Position numbers and translations under genes: made by a program. From UHGV virus genome UHGV-0084588: DNA of 64,000 nt; one strand, 5' to 3'. Of this stretch, positions 2,672-55,637 are shown one piece after another; within the stretch, counting starts at the first letter, position 1; the number at the start of each line of letters is the position of its first letter. The stretch is from a virus. Below the pieces are notes generated by a model that did not search any database, had not been told where the DNA came from, and saw only the letters and a list, made by a program, of their open reading frames with translations.

Positions 2672-4966
2672 ATGAAAGATACCCGAATCTCTAATCTGGA
2701 GAAACTCGTACAAGCTGGTAACTCGCTGGTACAAAGCGTCATTAGTAACAACAGTGCTGGCGAAATGTGGAACACCATCGTTGCTGGTGAATCTGTACGT
2801 AGCAACACGAAAGTTTTTGGTACCCTGCGTGACGACGCTGCACAGCACTACGCAAACGCGTTTGCTGGCGGTAAGAAAATGTCCCACGCTGCGGAAGTTG
2901 CTTCTGCAATGATTCTGGGTGCTGCTGGTCACGGTATGGACCTGCAAGAAAAAGTAGCGCAAGAATACGCTAAACCAGAATTCCATAGCCGTTTTAACCT
3001 GGACGTTGCGATTCCTGGTTCCCAAGCTGGTAACGGCGACTGGGGCAAAGAGCGTATGGTTGTCGCTCAGGAATACTACACCAACAAAGACTACGACAAA
3101 AACCTGGGTCTGACCTGGACGCTGAACGTACGTGCTCTGGAAACTCAGTCTCGTTTCGCTGAGACTCTGTTCCCGACCATTACCGTTGACACCAACGATG
3201 TTGGTATTACCGTACGTACCAAAGTGACCACCGTTTCTCGCGGTGTAATGAACGCACTGCTGAGCAAAGACGTTGTTGAAGATCATCGTCGTCCGCTGCA
3301 CAACGCACTGACCGACCACACCGTTCTCCAGGACGAAGCGATCAACATCGTTCCTTACGTAATGGAAACCGGTGAAAACGCTGAATACTTCGTAAGCGAA
3401 GATCTGGTGCCGAACGAATCTGTTCGCCTGGGCCGTGTACCTCCGTACCCGACTAACTACCTGAGCTTTGCTAAAGACACTCTGAACCTGTTCCAGCTGT
3501 CTGCGCATCCGGGTATCGTTCAGGAAGGTTACGACGAAACTGATGAAATCGCACCGGGTTGTGCTCTGGGCAGCCTGCTGATTTCTGTACGTAAACCGAC
3601 CGAAGAAGCGAAAGCAGGTAAGTTCATCAAACTGCACGTTCGTGACATGCAGTTCGCAACCTTCCAGCGTCCTGCTGAAGGTGATGGCCGTGAGCTGGTA
3701 CTGCAATTCCGTCGTACTGCGTTCTCTCTGAACGCGAAAACTACCGACTGGACTGGTGCGGCTATTCCGGCACTGCAAGCGCTGGGTCAGAACTCTTACA
3801 CCCTGCGTTATGTGATCACCATCAACATGTCTCTGTTCACTACCGGTCAGTTCGGTGGTAAAGTTGACATCGCTGGTCACAAACTGGAAATCGAAGGTCT
3901 GTACGACGCTACCGGTAACAAAGTTGATACCAAATCTGGTACCGGCAAAGTTATCCTGGACGGTCTGAAACTTGAACTGATGGGCTGGCGCTTCGATGGT
4001 ACTCGTACCAACGAAAACCGTCGTACCCAGGGTCTGCTGCTTGACCCAATCTGGGAACAAGAAAACTACAAACTGCAATACGGTTCTCCGATTCTGACCA
4101 AGTCTCCGGTTGGCGTTGAATACGACGACACCGAACGTCTGGACGACCTGATTTCCGCAGTTAACATCCGTAACGAACAGCTGGCTATCACTCAGACGCT
4201 GTCTTACACCGAAGCGGTACGTAACGCTGCTGCAAGCATGATCACTCCGTGGGACAAACCGGCCATTCGTGGTCTGGGCCGTCACTGGGTTGCTCCGTGG
4301 TTCAAAGAGTCTGACTACAACGTTGATGAAGTTGTACAGTCCCTGGATACCAAAGATGCACTGATCAACGCTCGTCAGGGCCTGGTACAGCGTATCGGTA
4401 ATCAGGTAACTCAGGCTATCCAGGAATCTCGCTTCATTCCTGCGCTGCGTCTGTACACCGCCGATCCGGACATTCTGCCGAAAGTTGTTATTGCAACTGA
4501 CGAACCGACTGCATCTATGCTGCTGCTGGTACAGGGCGACCAACGTCTGCTGGGCGATCGCTACGAATACGAAGTGATCACCACCAACGATGACCGCTGG
4601 CGTATCTACAACGCAGCTGACGGTTCCTGGACTCGTCGTCTGCAATGGTTCCTGAAAGTTCCGACTGCGGACGATGGTTCCTACAACGTGCTGAACTGGG
4701 GTAACCACTTCTGGTCTCCGATCATGGTTACTAACATCAACATTCAGCGTAACGGCTCTACCTCTAAAGAGCTGGCCGTACAGCCGCGCAACGCACACAT
4801 CTGCCACTGCCCGATCACTGGTCTGATCTGGGTTAAAGGCATCACCAAACTGGTTGAAGAAAAACTGGCTTACAATGTTTCTGTTGAACAGAACGGTCAG
4901 AAGCAAACCGACGGTGGTGTAGCAGGTAACGTTGCTGGCGATGGCAAAGCTGCTGCTGGTAAGTAA
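2672..4966 (+). CDS. putative major capsid protein (764 aa, jumbo-phage size class)
   Basis: Strongest codon bias in the window (ctg, cgt, ggt, gaa, aaa dominate), SD taagg upstream, strong terminator directly downstream. Size matches phiKZ-type capsid proteins; homology was not verified. Confidence 0.5.
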   Translation: MKDTRISNLEKLVQAGNSLVQSVISNNSAGEMWNTIVAGESVRSNTKVFGTLRDDAAQHYANAFAGGKKMSHAAEVASAMILGAAGHGMDLQEKVAQEYAKPEFHSRFNLDVAIPGSQAGNGDWGKERMVVAQEYYTNKDYDKNLGLTWTLNVRALETQSRFAETLFPTITVDTNDVGITVRTKVTTVSRGVMNALLSKDVVEDHRRPLHNALTDHTVLQDEAINIVPYVMETGENAEYFVSEDLVPNESVRLGRVPPYPTNYLSFAKDTLNLFQLSAHPGIVQEGYDETDEIAPGCALGSLLISVRKPTEEAKAGKFIKLHVRDMQFATFQRPAEGDGRELVLQFRRTAFSLNAKTTDWTGAAIPALQALGQNSYTLRYVITINMSLFTTGQFGGKVDIAGHKLEIEGLYDATGNKVDTKSGTGKVILDGLKLELMGWRFDGTRTNENRRTQGLLLDPIWEQENYKLQYGSPILTKSPVGVEYDDTERLDDLISAVNIRNEQLAITQTLSYTEAVRNAAASMITPWDKPAIRGLGRHWVAPWFKESDYNVDEVVQSLDTKDALINARQGLVQRIGNQVTQAIQESRFIPALRLYTADPDILPKVVIATDEPTASMLLLVQGDQRLLGDRYEYEVITTNDDRWRIYNAADGSWTRRLQWFLKVPTADDGSYNVLNWGNHFWSPIMVTNINIQRNGSTSKELAVQPRNAHICHCPITGLIWVKGITKLVEEKLAYNVSVEQNGQKQTDGGVAGNVAGDGKAAAGK

Positions 4967-16711: not shown

Positions 16712-17355
16712 TGTTGATACCCGAGCCGAGACTTCCAGATAAGATGGTAAGAATCGCGGCAATAGACCCCGGTACGAGCCATCTTGGTATGGCAGTATTG
16801 GATTGGGAATACGGCAGCGATCAAGCCGAAGTGGTTTGGGCTGATACCATGCATGTATTAGACCCAACGCATCCAAATGCGTTCGCAGAGTGTGTCGGTA
16901 AACGTGACGATCGTTTAGTTAAGCTCGAAGCTTGTTACCGTGAATTTCTTCGGATTGCCTGCCCAACTTTCGTTGCAACTGAGACACCGTTCATGCGGAG
17001 AGCAAAACTCTCCGCTTATGAATCTGGCGTCGAACTACAATTAATGTTGCGACGTACTTTGTGGGATATTTACCCGGAGAAAATTTTACACGGCTTCAAT
17101 CCTATCATTGTAAAATCATTCGTTGGGGTGGAGGCGAAGGGGACGGATAAAACCGATATGTTTCGGGCCGTGACCAAACTCTACCGTGAACATGCTTTGT
17201 TTGATATTACAACGTTAGATGAGCACAGCATTGATGCTGTGGCGGTGGGAAATATTTTCGTCAGGGTAAATCTGTTAAACTTAAACAGCTTGCTACCGCC
17301 TAAACAAAAGTCGACCAAGACCTCCAGGCGGAGAAGGCGTCGGAGAAAACGTTAA
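16711..17355 (+). CDS. RuvC-like Holliday junction resolvase with poly-Arg C-terminal tail
   Basis: N-terminal IAAIDPGTSHLGMAV resembles the RuvC catalytic Asp motif; later ETPF and HSIDAVAVG acidic motifs fit the RuvC fold; C-terminus KSTKTSRRRRRRRKR. Confidence 0.65.
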   Translation: MLIPEPRLPDKMVRIAAIDPGTSHLGMAVLDWEYGSDQAEVVWADTMHVLDPTHPNAFAECVGKRDDRLVKLEACYREFLRIACPTFVATETPFMRRAKLSAYESGVELQLMLRRTLWDIYPEKILHGFNPIIVKSFVGVEAKGTDKTDMFRAVTKLYREHALFDITTLDEHSIDAVAVGNIFVRVNLLNLNSLLPPKQKSTKTSRRRRRRRKR

Positions 17356-17933
17356 TGGAACCAAGCACACAAGCAATACCCACCGAAATACTTGACTTAC
17401 TGATTCAAGCTGGAAACAGAAAGTTAAGTAAAGAACAGTCTGAACAGTTAACGAAACTCTTGAAAGCGGCGTATGGGGATGAAGTCGATGTTGACGTCAC
17501 CCGTTCGGGAACAAAGATTCTTTCCGATCTACGACCGACGCTAATCGATAATTTAGGCAAAATATCAGAACAATTCCATCAGCAGGCAACCGATGCTGTG
17601 GAATCTCTCGGGGATGAGATTAGCAAAGAAACCATGCTAACCTTGTGGCCGAAATTAGCCGCTCCTCAGAAGTTCATTATTGCCCTCTTGACATTGGCGA
17701 CGGTTATTGTAACCGGATTCTTGGGTTACGACACGCACCAACATTTTCCAGAAGACAGTCTAGACGTTCTGATTGTGACGTTGGTACCGTTCTTTGCATT
17801 GGTTGTTTTTGCGACTTGGCCGATTAAAACGTTGGCTTATAAGTCTCTTGAGATAGCCACAAAAGTTGTTGAGAAGAAGCTTGAGAAATCAGGCCAGCTT
17901 AAGTCGAAGACAGAAAGCCCAGCAACGAAATAA
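17355..17933 (+). CDS. membrane protein (two predicted TM helices)
   Basis: Two hydrophobic segments (FIIALLTLATVIVTGFLGY and VLIVTLVPFFALVVFATWPI); terminator downstream. Confidence 0.55.
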   Translation: MEPSTQAIPTEILDLLIQAGNRKLSKEQSEQLTKLLKAAYGDEVDVDVTRSGTKILSDLRPTLIDNLGKISEQFHQQATDAVESLGDEISKETMLTLWPKLAAPQKFIIALLTLATVIVTGFLGYDTHQHFPEDSLDVLIVTLVPFFALVVFATWPIKTLAYKSLEIATKVVEKKLEKSGQLKSKTESPATK

Positions 17934-34062: not shown

Positions 34063-34593
34063 GTGATAGCGCGACTTGCGAGTCGGTTTAAGCAACGTCG
34101 GGCAAAGGCGGTCGAATGGCCGCCTATTACGCATGACGAGAAAGTAGTTTCTTTTTTGGAATATAACAAAGACCTGAAAAGATTAGGTGAGTTAATGCAC
34201 TTAACGGAACGTCAGGTTTTTGCTAAGATTTCAAGTAGTGTTTTACGTAAACAGGTAATTCCACACCTATCCTTTTCAGGGCAGGTTTTTGCAATAGCGA
34301 CAGAGGAATTTTTATCGATAGCGGGGAATGAAACCCCACGTATACGGTACTCAGTTACAGGTTCATCAGATGCGGTTGGTACAGTTGATTTCGGACGGTT
34401 GTATCAGAGCATTAAAAGTACGGGCCATATACATGTTAAACGGGTATCAGAAACTTCTGTAGTGATTTATCACCGTACTGAGAATGATTTGTTCGGGCGT
34501 GTTATAAGGCTAACAAACTTACGCAGTTTTTACGTTGATTTGCTTACAGAGTTTTATCCAGAACCATGGTGCTTTATAGATGAAAATAAATGA
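34063..34593 (+). CDS. hypothetical protein (176 aa, GTG start)
   Basis: GTG start with SD aggaagagg upstream. Confidence 0.5.
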   Translation: MIARLASRFKQRRAKAVEWPPITHDEKVVSFLEYNKDLKRLGELMHLTERQVFAKISSSVLRKQVIPHLSFSGQVFAIATEEFLSIAGNETPRIRYSVTGSSDAVGTVDFGRLYQSIKSTGHIHVKRVSETSVVIYHRTENDLFGRVIRLTNLRSFYVDLLTEFYPEPWCFIDENK

Positions 34594-34792
34594 CGGATAT
34601 ATCATCACGGCAATTGTTTCAACTGCGCTGATTGTAACAATGTTGATGTTCTACGTTAAGACTTCCGACGAATCACGTAAAGAATCTCTTTATCGTGAAT
34701 GTATGGCAGGTACTACGGTAGATAATCCACGCTACGCTGAATTGGTAATGGCGTGTACGGATTACGCTAAACGAATGGGAGGTGGAGGATGA
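34580..34792 (+). CDS. small membrane protein (70 aa, one TM, two Cys)
   Basis: N-terminal hydrophobic helix YIITAIVSTALIVTMLMFYV; paralog of the next ORF. Confidence 0.4.
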   Translation: MKINDGYIITAIVSTALIVTMLMFYVKTSDESRKESLYRECMAGTTVDNPRYAELVMACTDYAKRMGGGG

Positions 34793-34986
34793 AAATTTGG
34801 TTACCGATTCTAGTTTTTATCCTTATCGCAGGAGCACTAGCAAGTGCTGAGTACGATAATCGTGTTCTAGAAACAAAGCGCGAACTGTATCAGGACTGTA
34901 TAAAGGATTACACACCGGGTACAGAGCTTCATGCACAGGCTGTAAAAAGTTGTGCACTGATGGCCGAATCGCAGACTCGTTCCTAA
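34789..34986 (+). CDS. small membrane or secreted protein (65 aa), paralog of 34580-34792
   Basis: N-terminal hydrophobic segment WLPILVFILIAGALASA; shares the LY..C...T......A....C pattern with the upstream ORF. Confidence 0.4.
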   Translation: MKIWLPILVFILIAGALASAEYDNRVLETKRELYQDCIKDYTPGTELHAQAVKSCALMAESQTRS

Positions 34987-50505: not shown

Positions 50506-51354
50506 ATGTCTCTTACGTCAAAACAGAAACTGCTAAAACTCATCAACACTGAAAACAATATTGTTCCGCCATTGACCTTCAGTGATGTTGATATCGGCGA
50601 ACCTACTGGTACTGGGGTTGATACCCAGGTGGTTCTGACTTCTAAACTCAAAGGCGATGAGTCTACTACTTTAACGGTGACTTACCATCGTCGTAATTTG
50701 CCAGAATACCTAACAGGCGAGTTGGTATTCGGTAACGACGGTGTTGTAACTGCTGCAGATTTGCTTAATGCAATCAACGCAAAATACGATTTAAATATTC
50801 TGCCGTCAGATATCGTTGATGCGAAAGTTGAAGGTAAAACCCACCAACTTGCCGCTAACGAGAAATCCTACGAGTGGTGTGGCGAAGTGACACTTACGCT
50901 ACGCGATCCTATTGATCTGGCTAAACTGCTACCTGTTACTCAATTAGAAAACCTGGTAGAGTATCCGTCCACCAAGAAAGGTAACGCTGCGGTTTATTCT
51001 TATCCGATTGACTTCACCGCAGAAAAAGATTACCTTGATCCGATTACCATTAACGACACCGTAGACTTAGTAGAGTTAGCTACTAAACTGACTAACGTTG
51101 TTGACGAGAAATGGGTAAGCGTACCTAAGAACGCTGCTAATAACTTGTTCGGTGCTAAGGTTATCTACGATGGCCCTACCGCAGGTTTCGAAGGCGCAAA
51201 TGCGAAGTACACGCGTGTGCTGGTACTCGCCCTAAGCGGTATGTGTTCTAACCTGACCGGTAAACTGTTAATTCACTTTAACGGAACCGATCGTCCGAAG
51301 TCGAAGATTGAATTAGCCAAGACTAATTCGGTCTTACCGGGATTCTTAGATTAA
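50506..51354 (+). CDS. member of a six-copy paralogous protein family, possibly structural (282 aa)
   Basis: N-terminal pattern L..LIN..N......T..DV..GEP.....G..T.V.LT.........(Y/H).R shared with 51368, 54511, 55107, 35448 and 42163. Confidence 0.55.
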   Translation: MSLTSKQKLLKLINTENNIVPPLTFSDVDIGEPTGTGVDTQVVLTSKLKGDESTTLTVTYHRRNLPEYLTGELVFGNDGVVTAADLLNAINAKYDLNILPSDIVDAKVEGKTHQLAANEKSYEWCGEVTLTLRDPIDLAKLLPVTQLENLVEYPSTKKGNAAVYSYPIDFTAEKDYLDPITINDTVDLVELATKLTNVVDEKWVSVPKNAANNLFGAKVIYDGPTAGFEGANAKYTRVLVLALSGMCSNLTGKLLIHFNGTDRPKSKIELAKTNSVLPGFLD

Positions 51355-51367
51355 GAGGATTACAGTA

Positions 51368-51844
51368 ATGACCAGTCAAGAAACTATCTTCGACCTTATT
51401 AAAAAGGCTAACCCAGACGCCGAGCTCGACACCGCCAAAGTCACATTGGGTGAGCCCGTCGTAAGTACCGGTACGTACAACACCGAAATTACGGTTGCGC
51501 CGGTGAAGAATCTCGGTTATGTTAATAAGCAAACGTTCCAGTATAACCGCATTGATGCAGGTTTGTATTTCCTCAACGTATTGCCGAAACTGTTAGTTGA
51601 AACAGCCACCACGACTGCGGACTTGCTGCCTGTAATTAACGAGCAGTATGGCTTAACCCTTACCGAAGACGATGTGTGGGTAGAGCAGGTTGGTGCGTTA
51701 CCGCTAGACGGCAGTGCAATCGAGCACGGTATTTTCTTCCGCCCAGAGTGTCTAACCTGGGTCGGTGGTTTTACAGTGCGTGTTGCGCGTAAACCGTCTG
51801 TCGAGACACCGCCAGCTAAGCCATCGCGCGCTAAGAAGAAATAA
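51368..51844 (+). CDS. member of the same paralogous family (158 aa)
   Basis: Family pattern as above; terminator downstream. Confidence 0.55.
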   Translation: MTSQETIFDLIKKANPDAELDTAKVTLGEPVVSTGTYNTEITVAPVKNLGYVNKQTFQYNRIDAGLYFLNVLPKLLVETATTTADLLPVINEQYGLTLTEDDVWVEQVGALPLDGSAIEHGIFFRPECLTWVGGFTVRVARKPSVETPPAKPSRAKKK

Positions 51845-51848
51845 CTAC

Positions 51849-51884
51849 AGGGTGGGGTAATCCCACCCTCTTTTCTTTTTTTGT
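51849..51884 (+). terminator. rho-independent terminator before the lysis cassette
   Basis: GGGTGGGG-taat-CCCACCC followed by tcttttctttttttg. Confidence 0.5.
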
Positions 51885-51906: not shown

Positions 51907-52497
51907 ATGGCCGAACGTTGGACTAAAGAAGGTATTATTGAATCAAAAACAGATTTAGAGGGTGGGTACGTGAACGACCCTGACGATAAAGGTGGGGAAA
52001 CCTGTCACGGGGTAACACTGACAACTGCACGCGAATACGGGTACAAAGGAAGAATGAAAGATCTGACCCGTGCGCAAGCGTTTGATATTTACGATCGTGG
52101 TTGGTGGAAGAAACTTAAACTCGATGAGATTTTCGCTATCTCGCCGATACTCGCAGACCGGATGTTTGATTTTGGTATTAACTCTGGCCGTGTTAACTGT
52201 GTGAAATCATTACAACGTATTCTCAACGTTTTAAATAACGAAGGGAAACTTTACGCAGATATTGACACCGACGGTGGCATGGGCCCTAAAACGCTAGGTG
52301 CCCTGAATGCTTATCTGAATTACCGTAAAGGCGAGGGATTAGGCATCTTAATCTTTGCGTTAATCTCACACCAGGTAACCTACTACACGGAAATCTCCGA
52401 AAAGCGTAAGAAGAATGAAAAATTCGCTTACGGCTGGTACGGACGCGTGTACAGGGAAATGCCGGATTATGTAGTGAAGGCGGGGTTAGTAAAATGA
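51907..52497 (+). CDS. endolysin, glycoside hydrolase family 108 muramidase with peptidoglycan-binding C-terminal domain
   Basis: N-terminal EGGYVNDPDDKGGETCHGVT is the hallmark GH108 motif; the C-terminal half resembles the associated PG-binding domain. Confidence 0.8.
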   Translation: MAERWTKEGIIESKTDLEGGYVNDPDDKGGETCHGVTLTTAREYGYKGRMKDLTRAQAFDIYDRGWWKKLKLDEIFAISPILADRMFDFGINSGRVNCVKSLQRILNVLNNEGKLYADIDTDGGMGPKTLGALNAYLNYRKGEGLGILIFALISHQVTYYTEISEKRKKNEKFAYGWYGRVYREMPDYVVKAGLVK

Positions 52498-52613
52498 ATT
52501 GGTTTGCTAAACTCTTAGCACTATTGTGGAAAGCGTTAACGTCTGGACGGAAACGTAAAGACGAAAAGCGTGGGTACGAATTTTTCTGGTTTCTATAAGG
52601 GAAGGTGTGGGTA

Positions 52614-53279
52614 ATGGAGAAGCTTCAATATAAACGTTTAGACAATAAGTGGTTTGTATTAACGGAGGATTACCATTATCCGTTTACGTTACGCGAGATT
52701 TATCACGACCACGTACACTTAGACCGTGCGGTTTATTTAACGGGTGTATTGCCTGACACGCAACTGTGGTTAACAGCACCGAAAGGGTTCGTTACCGATT
52801 TAGCGTCAATTCCTGATCACCTCCAGGGAATTTTCCATCCTGACGGACCGTGGGCACCTGCGGCCTGTATTCACGACTTACTCTATCAAAAATGCAACAC
52901 AGAGCGTAGCTATCCCATGACACCGGGTGGTAACGTTTCGCGTTTTATCGATAAAGAGTTCTCTGACTTAACTTTCCTGCGTATTATGCAGTCGTTGGAA
53001 ATCTCGCCTTATATCTGCCAAACATTTTATAAGGCTGTTGTTGAATTCGGCTGGGATGCCTACGTAGATCCTAATGCAAAGCCATCCTACAACACTAACG
53101 CGTTTCGTACGTTAGATTACAATCGAAACTATTTATTCGTTCGCGAGTTTAAGGAACCTGCAATCCCTGACCACGAACGTATTGATATCACCACAGATTG
53201 TCCCGTTAATGTCAAATACCTGAACATCAAACGGGCATTTCTGTCTGGGAGGGAAGATGTTTCATCCAAATCCGAGTAA
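52614..53279 (+). CDS. DUF1353-like phage protein
   Basis: GFVTDLASIP...HD.LY resembles the DUF1353 signature as I recall it; ATG at 52614 preferred over the track start 52605. Confidence 0.4.
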   Translation: MEKLQYKRLDNKWFVLTEDYHYPFTLREIYHDHVHLDRAVYLTGVLPDTQLWLTAPKGFVTDLASIPDHLQGIFHPDGPWAPAACIHDLLYQKCNTERSYPMTPGGNVSRFIDKEFSDLTFLRIMQSLEISPYICQTFYKAVVEFGWDAYVDPNAKPSYNTNAFRTLDYNRNYLFVREFKEPAIPDHERIDITTDCPVNVKYLNIKRAFLSGREDVSSKSE

Positions 53280-53772
53280 CTTTAAACTCAGAGAGTTAGT
53301 ACCACAGTCCTATATTGCCAAATACGGTGATTCCGCAATTCGGTTTATGAATCCGTTGTTAATGATTTCCCTACAACAGATTCGTAACCGTTTCGGTAGA
53401 ATGGTGATTAACTCAACTGCCGCACAACAGCGCGGACTAAGAACCTTAGATTTCTTTATTAATCAAGAAAAGCCTAAGGGTGGTAGTTATAAACAACGTG
53501 CGTTGCAGCTTTACGCCGATTCAGGAAGTCAACACAAATTCGGTAACGCTATTGATGCAACGTTGTTGGATAGCACCGTAAAACAGGTTCACGACTATAT
53601 CGCTGCTAACCCTGACGAGTTTCCGTTCATTCACTTTATTGAATGTGATATCAGTTGGTTACACATCGACGTTCGTAACCAACCTAACATTACTTTCTGG
53701 TCACCAAACCGTGGCACTGTGAAGGTTGTTAAGCAAAAGCCAATCGATTGGAGCGCCTTAGTCGAGATTTAA
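53257..53772 (+). CDS. peptidase M15-like cell-wall hydrolase
   Basis: SQHKFGNAIDA fits the S.H..G.A.D zinc-binding motif and WLHID fits the second His motif of M15/VanY-type peptidases. Confidence 0.55.
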   Translation: MFHPNPSNFKLRELVPQSYIAKYGDSAIRFMNPLLMISLQQIRNRFGRMVINSTAAQQRGLRTLDFFINQEKPKGGSYKQRALQLYADSGSQHKFGNAIDATLLDSTVKQVHDYIAANPDEFPFIHFIECDISWLHIDVRNQPNITFWSPNRGTVKVVKQKPIDWSALVEI

Positions 53773-53855: not shown

Positions 53856-53892
53856 TACCCTACTCCCGTTAAGGAGTAGGGTACTTTTTATT
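53856..53892. terminator. bidirectional terminator between convergent genes
   Basis: TACCCTACTCC-cgttaa-GGAGTAGGGTA with a flanking A-run and ctttttattg; lies between 53257-53772 (+) and 53888-54379 (-). Confidence 0.65.
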
Positions 53893-54379
53893 GTTCCGCA
53901 GGATGGAGCATTGTTCCAGTGTCAGGCGCTACACCTTCTATACAGCGGAAGAAAGTAATGCCTTTACCATCGCCCGTTTTATATTCTAAAGTAGAATACG
54001 CAAATGTTGGTGTTTTTGAAAGCAAACCATTTACACGGTAGTAACGTTGTCCCGTGATAGGATCAATATTCCCATTAACTTTACCTAATAAATCTTTATA
54101 AAGTTGGGGCGACTCAATCTTACCATTTGGCCAAGTGGCTACCCAATTAGCACCAGTATCGACTACGGTTACTGAGCCTAACATTAGATTAGTCGAGCTG
54201 ACGACAGGTTTGTAATTTGCAAAATCTTGCTCTACACCCATGCAGGTGTAAATAACCATGTCGTGTGGCTCCACCGGCACAGTCGAGAATTGGCCGTTAC
54301 CATTTGGTTGTAAGGCACATCCTGCTAATGAAAAAACACCAAGCATAACGATAAGAAAACGCTTTATCATACTTTTCAC
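53888..54379 (-). CDS. lipoprotein (163 aa)
   Basis: Signal peptide with lipobox LAGC (MKSMIKRFLIVMLGVFSLAGCALQ); lone minus-strand gene between plus-strand genes; bidirectional terminator downstream. Confidence 0.65.
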   Translation of the reverse strand: MKSMIKRFLIVMLGVFSLAGCALQPNGNGQFSTVPVEPHDMVIYTCMGVEQDFANYKPVVSSTNLMLGSVTVVDTGANWVATWPNGKIESPQLYKDLLGKVNGNIDPITGQRYYRVNGLLSKTPTFAYSTLEYKTGDGKGITFFRCIEGVAPDTGTMLHPAEQ

Positions 54380-54510: not shown

Positions 54511-55041
54511 ATGGCTAAAACCTTCCAACAGCAACTTATTGACGCTGTTAATACCAAAAACAGTACCCTGGACCCCGCACTCACCGTAGCTGATGTTGAC
54601 TTTGGTGCTGTTGCTGAGTTCACCGGAGAAGCTGGCCGCAACACTAAAATTACCCTGACCGCCAAGGAAGAAAGCCAGCACTTCAAGGGCGAGAAAGAAT
54701 TCCACTATACTCGTCTTTCATGCGACATCGTTGGTGAAGTTGAAGTAACTGCACCTGCTACCGATTTCGATTCAGCAGCGAAAATCCTGGCGAAAGTTAA
54801 CGCAGCCATGGCTGAGAAAGGGTACACCGATGACGAGTTCGGTGAAAACGACCTGCAAAGTATTTCTCGTGAAGAAGAAGGCAAAACCATTTACGTAGTA
54901 ACTGTTGTGGCCGGACACCTGAAGTTCCTGCCAGGCACTGTTGCAACGTATAAAGTTACTCCTCCGGCTCCTGAGAAAGTAGCACTGGACGGTCTGGAAG
55001 GTGAACTGGATAGCTTCACTGCACCGCTTCCTAAAGAGTAA
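54511..55041 (+). CDS. member of the six-copy paralogous family, codon-biased (176 aa)
   Basis: Family pattern; host-like codon bias suggests high expression; a sigma70-like -10 element lies upstream. Confidence 0.6.
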   Translation: MAKTFQQQLIDAVNTKNSTLDPALTVADVDFGAVAEFTGEAGRNTKITLTAKEESQHFKGEKEFHYTRLSCDIVGEVEVTAPATDFDSAAKILAKVNAAMAEKGYTDDEFGENDLQSISREEEGKTIYVVTVVAGHLKFLPGTVATYKVTPPAPEKVALDGLEGELDSFTAPLPKE

Positions 55042-55106: not shown

Positions 55107-55637
55107 ATGGCCGCTACTAACCAGATGATGTTGGTCGCGCTTTATAATGCTGCTAACACTGAGCTACCACATCAGATTACTGATAAAGAAGTGTCCTTTG
55201 GTCTCCCTACTGCGCTGGAAGGCAAAAGTAAGAATACCAAAGTTACCATGACTGCACTACCGGGTTCTGAGAATTTCAAAGGCGCAATCGAGCTGCATTA
55301 CGATCGTCTGGAGCCGGGTGTTGTAGGACGTATTGAACTAACTGACGATTTGTCTCGTTGGGAAGATCAAAACGAATTGCGCGCATGGTTACAATATTAC
55401 ATCAACAAAGTAAAACCTGACGACGCTATCGCACCTGGTGACGTTGTGTACAGCACCGAAGACCAGAAAGACGAACATGATAACGTCACACTGCGTACGG
55501 TAACGTGCACCGTTACTGAAAAGAACCTCCGTTATAAACCGGGTGTAATGGCAACTTTCGTAATTACGCCGAAAGTTGTTGACAATCGTATTGACCTGGC
55601 CACTACCAACGGCGAGCTGGACGGCTTTACGTCCTAA
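55107..55637 (+). CDS. member of the six-copy paralogous family (176 aa)
   Basis: Family pattern; bidirectional terminator downstream. Confidence 0.6.
   Translation: MAATNQMMLVALYNAANTELPHQITDKEVSFGLPTALEGKSKNTKVTMTALPGSENFKGAIELHYDRLEPGVVGRIELTDDLSRWEDQNELRAWLQYYINKVKPDDAIAPGDVVYSTEDQKDEHDNVTLRTVTCTVTEKNLRYKPGVMATFVITPKVVDNRIDLATTNGELDGFTS

Follow-up and report, generated by a model that had tools for sequence, protein, structure and literature searches.

The locus considered here raises the question of whether a very short open reading frame (ORF), located at the 3′ end of an endolysin gene in the virus genome UHGV-0084588, is a gene at all and, if so, whether its product takes part in lysis. 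The DNA analysed was a stretch of 64,000 nucleotides of that genome, referred to below as the window. It was found by direct reading of the sequence that the 34-codon ORF reported in a first-pass annotation is present at positions 52494–52598 on the plus strand, with the translation MNWFAKLLALLWKALTSGRKRKDEKRGYEFFWFL*. Its ATG (52494–52496) overlaps the TGA of the endolysin gene (52495–52497), as had also been reported, and the resulting ATGA at 52494–52497 (+) is a start/stop overlap of the type that signals translational coupling. A purine-rich, Shine-Dalgarno (SD)-like stretch, GAAGGCGGGG, is located inside the 3′ end of the endolysin gene at 52476–52485 (+); its GGGG run stops 8 nt upstream of the ATG, and it may serve as the SD element of the small gene. 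The hydrophobic N terminus and following basic stretch that had been described were recognized as well: residues 1–18 are both hydrophobic and amphipathic, with RKRK after them.

Because 76 ORFs of at least 25 amino acids (aa) overlap the 7-kb stretch around the small ORF, its existence alone is no more than would be expected by chance. Coding was evaluated with a codon-position test on nine sequences of the clade to which the window belongs, in two of which the contig stops short of the last five codons. The frame was open in all nine, and the numbers of variable columns at codon positions 1, 2, and 3 of the small-gene frame were 3, 2, and 12 (P = 0.0019 relative to one-third). The fraction of variation at third positions was 0.71 in the small gene, compared to 0.76–0.86 in the flanking endolysin, DUF1353, and peptidase genes. 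In the small-gene frame there were 10 codons with synonymous changes only and 4 with amino acid changes among the nine related sequences, whereas the other two frames had 2–4 and 10–11 such codons, respectively. These results show that the ORF is under purifying selection. Since this codon-position bias is combined with conservation of the amino acid sequence across genera at the same genomic position (described below), the coding signal goes beyond chance, the ORF is very probably a real protein-coding gene, and we infer that it is translated. The gene callers skipped it in the Logan contigs of the window's own clade.

No close DNA relatives of the window were found in INPHARED (the GenBank phage collection), and a tblastn search of that collection with the window peptide gave no match. 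The distant DNA matches of the endolysin gene were to jumbo phages, namely Erskinevirus (Asesino and phiEaH2), SPN3US-like Seoulvirus, and Certrevirus. The long ORFs of the window from about 29 kb onward are colinear with the 100–146 kb region of SPN3US, with about 25–83% amino acid identity, and on this evidence the window comes from a distant relative of Seoulvirus. Several members of the window clade were found in IMG/VR and Logan, with endolysin identities of 90–97% and contigs of up to 225 kb; an IMG/VR scan using the peptide alignment yielded four window-clade contigs and no others.

Small ORFs at the same position were found in Asesino (gp172), phiEaH2 (gp076), SPN3US, phage 1252, SPAsTU, and pEa_SNUABM_29, the last two with GTG starts. 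Asesino gp172 (YP_009290790.1) has the sequence MKTNWFVTLMRAVGRALLFALRRKRHEKPEGGKA, and the SPN3US homologue, at 136039–136140, has the sequence MKQNWFAALMKAIWRALVFAARRKRNDPPSNSA. The Erskinevirus records annotate their homologues, including gp172, as 'hypothetical protein', and the SPN3US RefSeq/GenBank record, phage 1252, and most SPN3US-like records lack an annotation of the homologue. A tblastn search located the family in about 40 jumbo-phage records, most of which give it no annotated feature. The same-position ORFs have in common the motif NWF..L....[KR]AL....R[KR]KR, and when the window peptide is included in the alignment, M1, N2, W3, F4, L7, A14, L15, R21, and K22 are invariant. The window peptide has the family motif (NWF-x3-L...[KR]AL...R[KR]KR) and a length within the family range of 33–37 aa, and its gene is in the family position, directly 3′ of a GH108 endolysin gene, with the start overlapping the TGA, and upstream of a DUF1353 gene.

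The PHROG hidden Markov model (HMM) phrog_25143 matched the Asesino peptide with a value of 1.5e-26 and the SPN3US peptide with 3.4e-12. We used six Seoulvirus and Erskinevirus peptides to make a profile of our own, which was compared to all 1868 six-frame stop-to-stop segments of the window; the small ORF ranked first (E 4.5e-4, 16.6 bits), and the second-ranking segment had an E value of 1.3. On the grounds of this profile result and the identical synteny we accept homology to the family, and regard the window ORF as a putative divergent member of the phrog_25143 (Asesino gp172) family. Compared to Asesino gp172, phiEaH2 gp076, and the SPN3US ORF, it has the same position, TGA overlap, length of 33–37 aa, and order of an NWF-containing amphipathic helix followed by R[KR]KR, whereas the identity is only 28–35% and the C terminus (YEFFWFL) has an aromatic, hydrophobic character where theirs is polar and rich in proline. 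The phrog_25143 family was already known, and the window gene is a divergent addition to it; new here are the selection on the gene, its coupling to the endolysin, the variable cassette of small peptides described below, and the absence of the gene from reference annotations such as that of SPN3US.

The junction between the endolysin and peptide genes was compared among nine peptide-bearing loci from three clades and five loci without the peptide. In all nine of the former, the endolysin gene ends in AA[AG] TGA with the ATG or GTG of the peptide gene overlapping the stop, whereas in all five of the latter the endolysin stop is TAA. A nearby glycine codon is GGG or GGA in every peptide-bearing locus, creating a purine-rich, SD-like stretch 7–8 nt upstream, and is GGC in those peptide-less loci that keep the glycine. 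Because the clades are few and not independent, we consider this pattern of stop and glycine codons to be supportive rather than statistical evidence; as such, it supports a translational link between the small gene and the endolysin gene. A conserved programmed −1 frameshift that would extend the endolysin was also considered and was excluded because the slippery junction is limited to some clades: A AAA TGA was found only in the window clade and Asesino/EaH2, and the SPN3US-like, SPAsTU, pEa29, and L044 junctions have C AAA, C AAG, or T AAG. A natural endolysin–peptide fusion, sought as a 'Rosetta stone', was found in 0 of 81 endolysin homologues (169–213 aa).

The slot between the endolysin and DUF1353 genes was found to vary in content. 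In the window clade it contains the peptide described above (type A) alone, without overlapping peptides of types B and C such as are found beside type A in Erskinevirus and Seoulvirus. The Erskinevirus slot contains A and an overlapping type B, which consists of a polar N terminus followed by DSGF[FL]KLLRAI[FL]xRRV, an amphipathic helix plus RR. Across the sister genera, type B starts within the A gene, is 27–50 aa long, and has the motif DSGF[FL]K[LM]LRAI[FL]xRRV. In Seoulvirus the slot contains A, B, and C, type C being a peptide of about 30 aa with an acidic N terminus and a transmembrane (TM) helix (tail-anchored), and in the Caitlin-, Huxley-, and ChrisDB-like phages a 38–52-aa type C (phrog_26367) is present alone. 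The further small ORFs after type A are located at L006:2902–3073 and 3037–3129 in phage 1252/SPN3US, at L005:3158–3241 in Asesino, and at L047:1577–1672 and 1669–1761 in SPAsTU, where the type C start overlaps the B stop. Type B is without annotation in Asesino, phiEaH2, SPN3US, and phage 1252. Profiles of types B and C matched no site in the window (best E 1.3–1.8, elsewhere). The possibility that the aromatic C terminus GYEFFWFL of the window peptide is a remnant of type B (DSGFFKLLRAIF) was rejected, as the A-versus-B profile comparison was insignificant (probability 6%). In the L041 relative, the endolysin of which is 67% identical, a strong terminator hairpin (CCGTACGGGGCTTCGGCCCCGTTTTTT, at 3089–3125) replaces the slot and the DUF1353 gene begins 37 nt past the endolysin stop. 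At a distant GH108 locus (L025), the ORF directly after the endolysin gene is a GTA_holin_3TM holin (1.1e-11), and at another it is a lipoprotein-like ORF. Across these loci, the position after this endolysin family has been used repeatedly for membrane proteins, some of which are known lysis proteins, and the slot content is, as judged from this comparison, accessory and fast-evolving.

The window peptide is laid out as an amphipathic helix (residues 2–18), an RKRKDEKR cluster (19–26), and an aromatic hydrophobic tail (28–34), with a net charge of +5. Residues 1–18 have a hydrophobic moment (muH) of 0.45 and a mean hydrophobicity of 0.39, and only 1 of 5000 shuffles was as amphipathic; the polar face is narrow, with N2, K6, A9, K13, T16, and S17 within about 100 degrees. 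The homologues have charges of +6 to +7, muH values of 0.53–0.61, and summed Hessa free energies (dG) of +6 to +8. The best 19-residue segment of the window peptide has a summed Hessa dG of +9.9 kcal/mol, with two lysines inside the helix, which indicates an interfacial rather than a Sec-type TM helix, and no TM segment was found in the peptide on the Kyte-Doolittle scale. AlphaFold2, run on the single sequence, predicted one helix of residues 4–33 at moderate confidence (a predicted local distance difference test score, pLDDT, of 74.5). The peptide sequence contains neither a cysteine nor a lipobox nor a signal peptide; a signal peptide cleaved after TSG was considered and rejected, because RKRK directly past the site would block export and the n-region has no positive charge.

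Of the reference peptides for which these properties were computed, the closest was melittin, and the hydrophilic LL-37 was unlike the window peptide. Melittin, of bee venom (26 aa), is pore-forming. Like the window peptide, it has an amphipathic helix of about 18–20 residues followed by a KRKR-type cluster, a charge of +5, and a similar muH and hydrophobicity; it differs in that there is no homology, in the extra acidic and aromatic C-terminal tail of the window peptide, and in that the window peptide would be made inside its target cell. The resemblance is therefore architectural only. On the basis of the computed properties, the window peptide is probably membrane-associated.

A mechanism consistent with these observations is that the small gene is transcribed together with the endolysin gene and that ribosomes which terminate on the TGA of the endolysin gene start again on the ATG that overlaps it. 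As it has no signal sequence, the 34-residue product would be made in the cytoplasm, and its amphipathic helix and RKRK cluster would direct it to the anionic inner surface of the cytoplasmic membrane. Its proposed role at this site is that of an accessory lysis factor: by perturbing or permeabilising the membrane, either like melittin or as an aid to a holin, it would promote or time the release of the endolysin. The translated endolysin has a hydrophilic N terminus without a signal or signal-anchor-release (SAR) sequence, so that a membrane lesion would be needed for it to reach the wall. After wall breakdown, the outer membrane might possibly be attacked as well. The steps from translation onward are what we infer from the peptide's properties and context, and the mechanism as a whole, a coupled, cytoplasmic, membrane-perturbing accessory lysis factor, is put forward tentatively, with slightly less than an even chance of being correct. 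An involvement of the peptide in lysis of whatever kind we regard as evenly balanced, and intrinsic membrane permeabilisation, as opposed to regulation, as doubtful. An accessory membrane-active lysis peptide is, in these terms, a plausible assignment.

Several observations weigh against this assignment. The window peptide did not match the phrog_25143 HMM at E ≤ 1, and its homology rests on our own profile and synteny; phrog_25143 itself has the PHROG label 'unknown function', scans of the peptide against Pfam and NCBIfam gave no matches, and a concatenate of three family members gave no match in a large protein database. For the homologues, the shuffles gave weaker support for amphipathicity (p = 0.03–0.15). 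The slot is empty in L041, L042, and Certrevirus, which indicates that the function of the peptide is accessory and dispensable. A holin is expected to have at least one TM helix, and the peptide has none. The endolysin cluster is embedded among virion structural genes, and the DUF1353 gene has the PHROG label 'tail assembly chaperone'; these surroundings make a non-lysis role possible. Finally, a predicted two-component spanin is encoded elsewhere in the genomes of the peptide-bearing Seoulvirus and Erskinevirus.

In comparison to the characterised lysis proteins lambda S105/S107, T4 T/RI/RIII, phiKZ gp142/gp143, and the GTA_holin_3TM protein of L025, the window gene is likewise endolysin-adjacent, and its product is likewise small, membrane-directed, and charged in its C-terminal region (RKRKDEKR), whereas it differs from the characterised holins in having no TM helix, in being far shorter, and in matching no family. 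Having neither a TM helix nor a cysteine, the peptide does not resemble a spanin. No holin is named in the stretches of SPN3US, Asesino, and phiEaH2 that were compared, nor in the literature consulted on these phages. CR5_183/184 has been listed as a separated pair of inner-membrane (i-) and outer-membrane (o-) spanins (Kongari et al., PMC6139136 supplements). A homologue of the i-spanin was found in 62 jumbo-phage records, those of SPN3US, Asesino, and phiEaH2 among them, and in every genus examined a protein with an N-terminal TM segment and a coiled coil, together with a lipobox lipoprotein, is encoded in the interval flanked by a conserved structural gene and one for an endodeoxyribonuclease. 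The pair has homologues in window-clade contigs as well. No spanin homologue was found within the 64-kb window, as would follow from its correspondence to SPN3US 100–146 kb, the spanin genes being at about 180 kb. In all three window-clade IMG/VR contigs examined for the o-spanin homologue (L072:2513–2968, L073:2513–2968, and L084:2513–2971, all on the minus strand), that protein has no lipobox cysteine (MKSLLFIMILCVGLVSNGYGEPG..., MKMLLFIMVVFVGLVSNSYGDEV...), and the adjoining i-spanin homologue (167 aa) is intact. The lipobox cysteine is present in 14 of 14 o-spanin homologues from other genera (LLTGC, LLVGC, LAAC, LAGC, LMGC, and LCSC). The window-clade o-spanin homologue thus looks like a protein with a signal-peptidase-I rather than a lipoprotein signal, which would have no outer-membrane anchor.

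The same context and coupling would equally fit a lysis-timing regulator, which would dock at the inner side of the membrane, there to modulate a holin encoded elsewhere, in the manner of an antiholin or pro-holin, or tether the endolysin until triggering. The absence of a TM helix agrees with such a role, for which cytoplasmic T4 RIII and phiKZ gp143 offer comparisons; in phiKZ, the holin is the target of a small cytoplasmic regulator of lysis that is encoded beside the endolysin (PMC12894885). The presence of zero to three peptides per slot would also fit tuning better than a core function. However, a regulator would have no known partner, since these phages have no identified holin; the peptide has no sequence relation to known antiholins, and the fusions that would have suggested a physical partnership with the endolysin were not found among the 81 homologues. 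We consider this explanation unlikely. The peptide might also act on the membrane for purposes apart from lysis, in superinfection exclusion, host-envelope takeover, or assembly with the DUF1353 protein, with its linkage to the endolysin being only gene packing. In keeping with this are the label of the DUF1353 family, the location of the cluster where a long array of paralogous virion structural genes ends, the convergent lipoprotein gene that adjoins the unit, and the dispensability of the slot in some relatives. Against it, the start/stop overlap is with the endolysin gene and not with the DUF1353 gene, and this overlap covaries with the presence of the peptide; the unit contains two peptidoglycan hydrolases, and SPN3US gp158, which is also encoded there, is unlikely to be a genuine virion protein (PMC5694885; compare PMC5105663). 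This too seems unlikely to us, and the accessory membrane-active lysis peptide is retained as the preferred reading.

An attack on the outer membrane in place of spanins has a precedent in the disruptin of phiKT, gp28, a 56-aa cationic amphipathic peptide that is hydrophilic, has no signal sequence and no homologues, and is encoded between the holin and endolysin genes of a phage without spanins (10.1101/515445). The screen proposed for such proteins, in spanin-less phages, is for products of fewer than 80 aa with a charge of at least +4 (Holt et al., 10.1101/515445), and the window peptide, with its 34 aa, charge of +5, and predicted amphipathic helix, passes it. It also shares with gp28 the absence of a signal sequence and the position adjoining the endolysin, and the canonical outer-membrane tether may be missing from the window clade if its o-spanin homologue is anchorless, as described above. 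The differences are that the window peptide is shorter, with a strongly hydrophobic helix where gp28 is hydrophilic, that the two have no sequence relation, and that the phages concerned are not spanin-less: the peptide-bearing Seoulvirus and Erskinevirus have an i-spanin and a lipobox o-spanin homologous to the CR5 pair, and the window clade has homologues of both. Given these spanin pairs, the conserved role of the family cannot be spanin replacement, and an outer-membrane disruptor is not obviously needed; we therefore consider a disruptin very unlikely. The first-pass annotation had proposed a membrane-active lysis peptide or lysis regulator, and the part of this proposal that is supported is a selected coding ORF, linked to the endolysin, within a terminator-bounded unit that has two peptidoglycan hydrolases, and specifying a product with the properties of a membrane-binding cationic amphipathic helix. 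The narrowest form that such a proposal could take, a spanin-replacing disruptor of the outer membrane, is not supported, since relatives carry spanins. There might, lastly, be no functional protein, with the frame being kept by mRNA structure, the ribosome-binding region of the DUF1353 gene, ribosome delivery, or an extension of the endolysin by −1 frameshifting. The region has a more favourable fold than its shuffled versions (z = −2.89), the start codon and the DUF1353 SD fall in hairpin loops when the alignment is folded, and a −1 slip is formally possible at the window's A AAA TGA. However, compensatory change was found in only 2 of 47 predicted pairs, both explained by a single clade split, and the slippery context and natural fusions are absent as noted above. 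Moreover, the third-position bias and synonymous substitutions are specific to the small-gene frame, and the amino acid motif is kept across genera despite different nucleotides, an indel, and a change from ATG to GTG, neither of which RNA structure can explain. This last explanation is accordingly extremely unlikely.

A bolder form of the preferred reading, which we regard as improbable, is that a 34-residue, melittin-like cytoplasmic peptide, coupled stoichiometrically to the endolysin, itself opens the cytoplasmic membrane, which would make it the smallest and the first 'holin' without a TM helix, and/or that it finishes the outer membrane in a clade with an anchorless o-spanin. If an effector without a TM helix were indeed at work, the A, B, and C peptides of the SPN3US-type jumbo phages would constitute a previously unrecognised modular lysis cassette of small peptides. 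Gene callers have systematically overlooked the small genes of these phages. Type A is endolysin-coupled in some 40 sequenced jumbo phages, yet the reference annotation of SPN3US lacks it, and it belongs to a variable cassette that can hold as many as three small peptides directed to the membrane. If the product is membrane-lytic, it would offer a compact aid to endolysins, of practical interest where lysins are engineered against Gram-negative bacteria; if it is not, the finding still corrects an annotation and gives SPN3US genetics a concrete candidate.

The small gene is the second of a four-gene, terminator-bounded unit. The 5′ boundary is a terminator-like hairpin at 51849–51869 (+), with a 9-bp stem that has 6 G-C pairs and is followed by a T-run, and the 3′ boundary is a bidirectional terminator-like hairpin at 53856–53883, with stems of 11–13 bp on both strands. 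An Rfam search gave no family matches, the only sub-threshold match being at the upstream terminator. The endolysin gene (51907–52497, +) encodes a protein with GH108 (PF05838, E 3.7e-23) and PG_binding_3 (PF09374, E 5.2e-16) domains that belongs to phrog_315 ('endolysin') and is 62–65% identical to the endolysins of Asesino and the SPN3US-like and Certrevirus phages. The DUF1353 gene (52614–53279, +; PF07087, E 2.1e-14; phrog_1158) begins 15 nt past the stop of the small gene, has its own SD, GGAAGG, at 52600–52605, and is a conserved neighbour on the downstream side in all jumbo-phage loci examined. The unit ends with a gene (53257–53772, +) that encodes a LAS/M15-like peptidase of 171 aa (phrog_894 'endolysin', E 6.3e-28), in the translation of which the motifs SQHKFGNAID (SxHxxGxAxD) and HID were read, and which is 78% identical to SPN3US gp158. 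The supplements of the SPN3US virion paper make no mention of gp155–159.

In the window clade, the small gene and the DUF1353 gene share a frame, the sequence at 52596–52616 being TAA GGG AAG GTG TGG GTA ATG. Stop-codon read-through from the one gene into the other, across a single TAA and 15 nt, was considered and rejected, since the coordinates of the two genes in Asesino place them in different frames, and for the same reason the shared frame is probably a coincidence.

Directly past the endolysin unit there is a convergent gene (53888–54379, −) for a 163-aa lipoprotein, MKSMIKRFLIVMLGVFSLAGC..., which is the sole lipobox ORF in the window, belongs to phrog_9559 (label unknown function), and is conserved as SPN3US gp159. 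This lipoprotein lacks both a C-terminal TM helix and an i-spanin partner, and so does not stand out as a spanin. Paralogous ORFs are present on both sides of the lysis unit: those at 50506–51354 and 51368–51844 both match DUF7941, and the SPN3US genes that match them are in the long array annotated as virion structural at 118–135 kb; those at 54511–55041 and 55107–55637 (176 aa each) are alike by eye, and both match SPN3US gp160 at 138239–138766.

Further candidate membrane proteins were observed at a distance from the unit. Two adjacent ORFs at 34580–34792 (+) and 34789–34986 (+), of 70 and 65 aa with a start/stop overlap, have no Pfam match; each has an N-terminal hydrophobic helix or signal followed by a cysteine-containing polar domain, and they could be membrane or periplasmic proteins. 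A 192-aa ORF at 17355–17933 (+), with no significant Pfam match, has two predicted TM segments (at about residues 101 and 133) and might be a membrane protein relevant to the missing holin.

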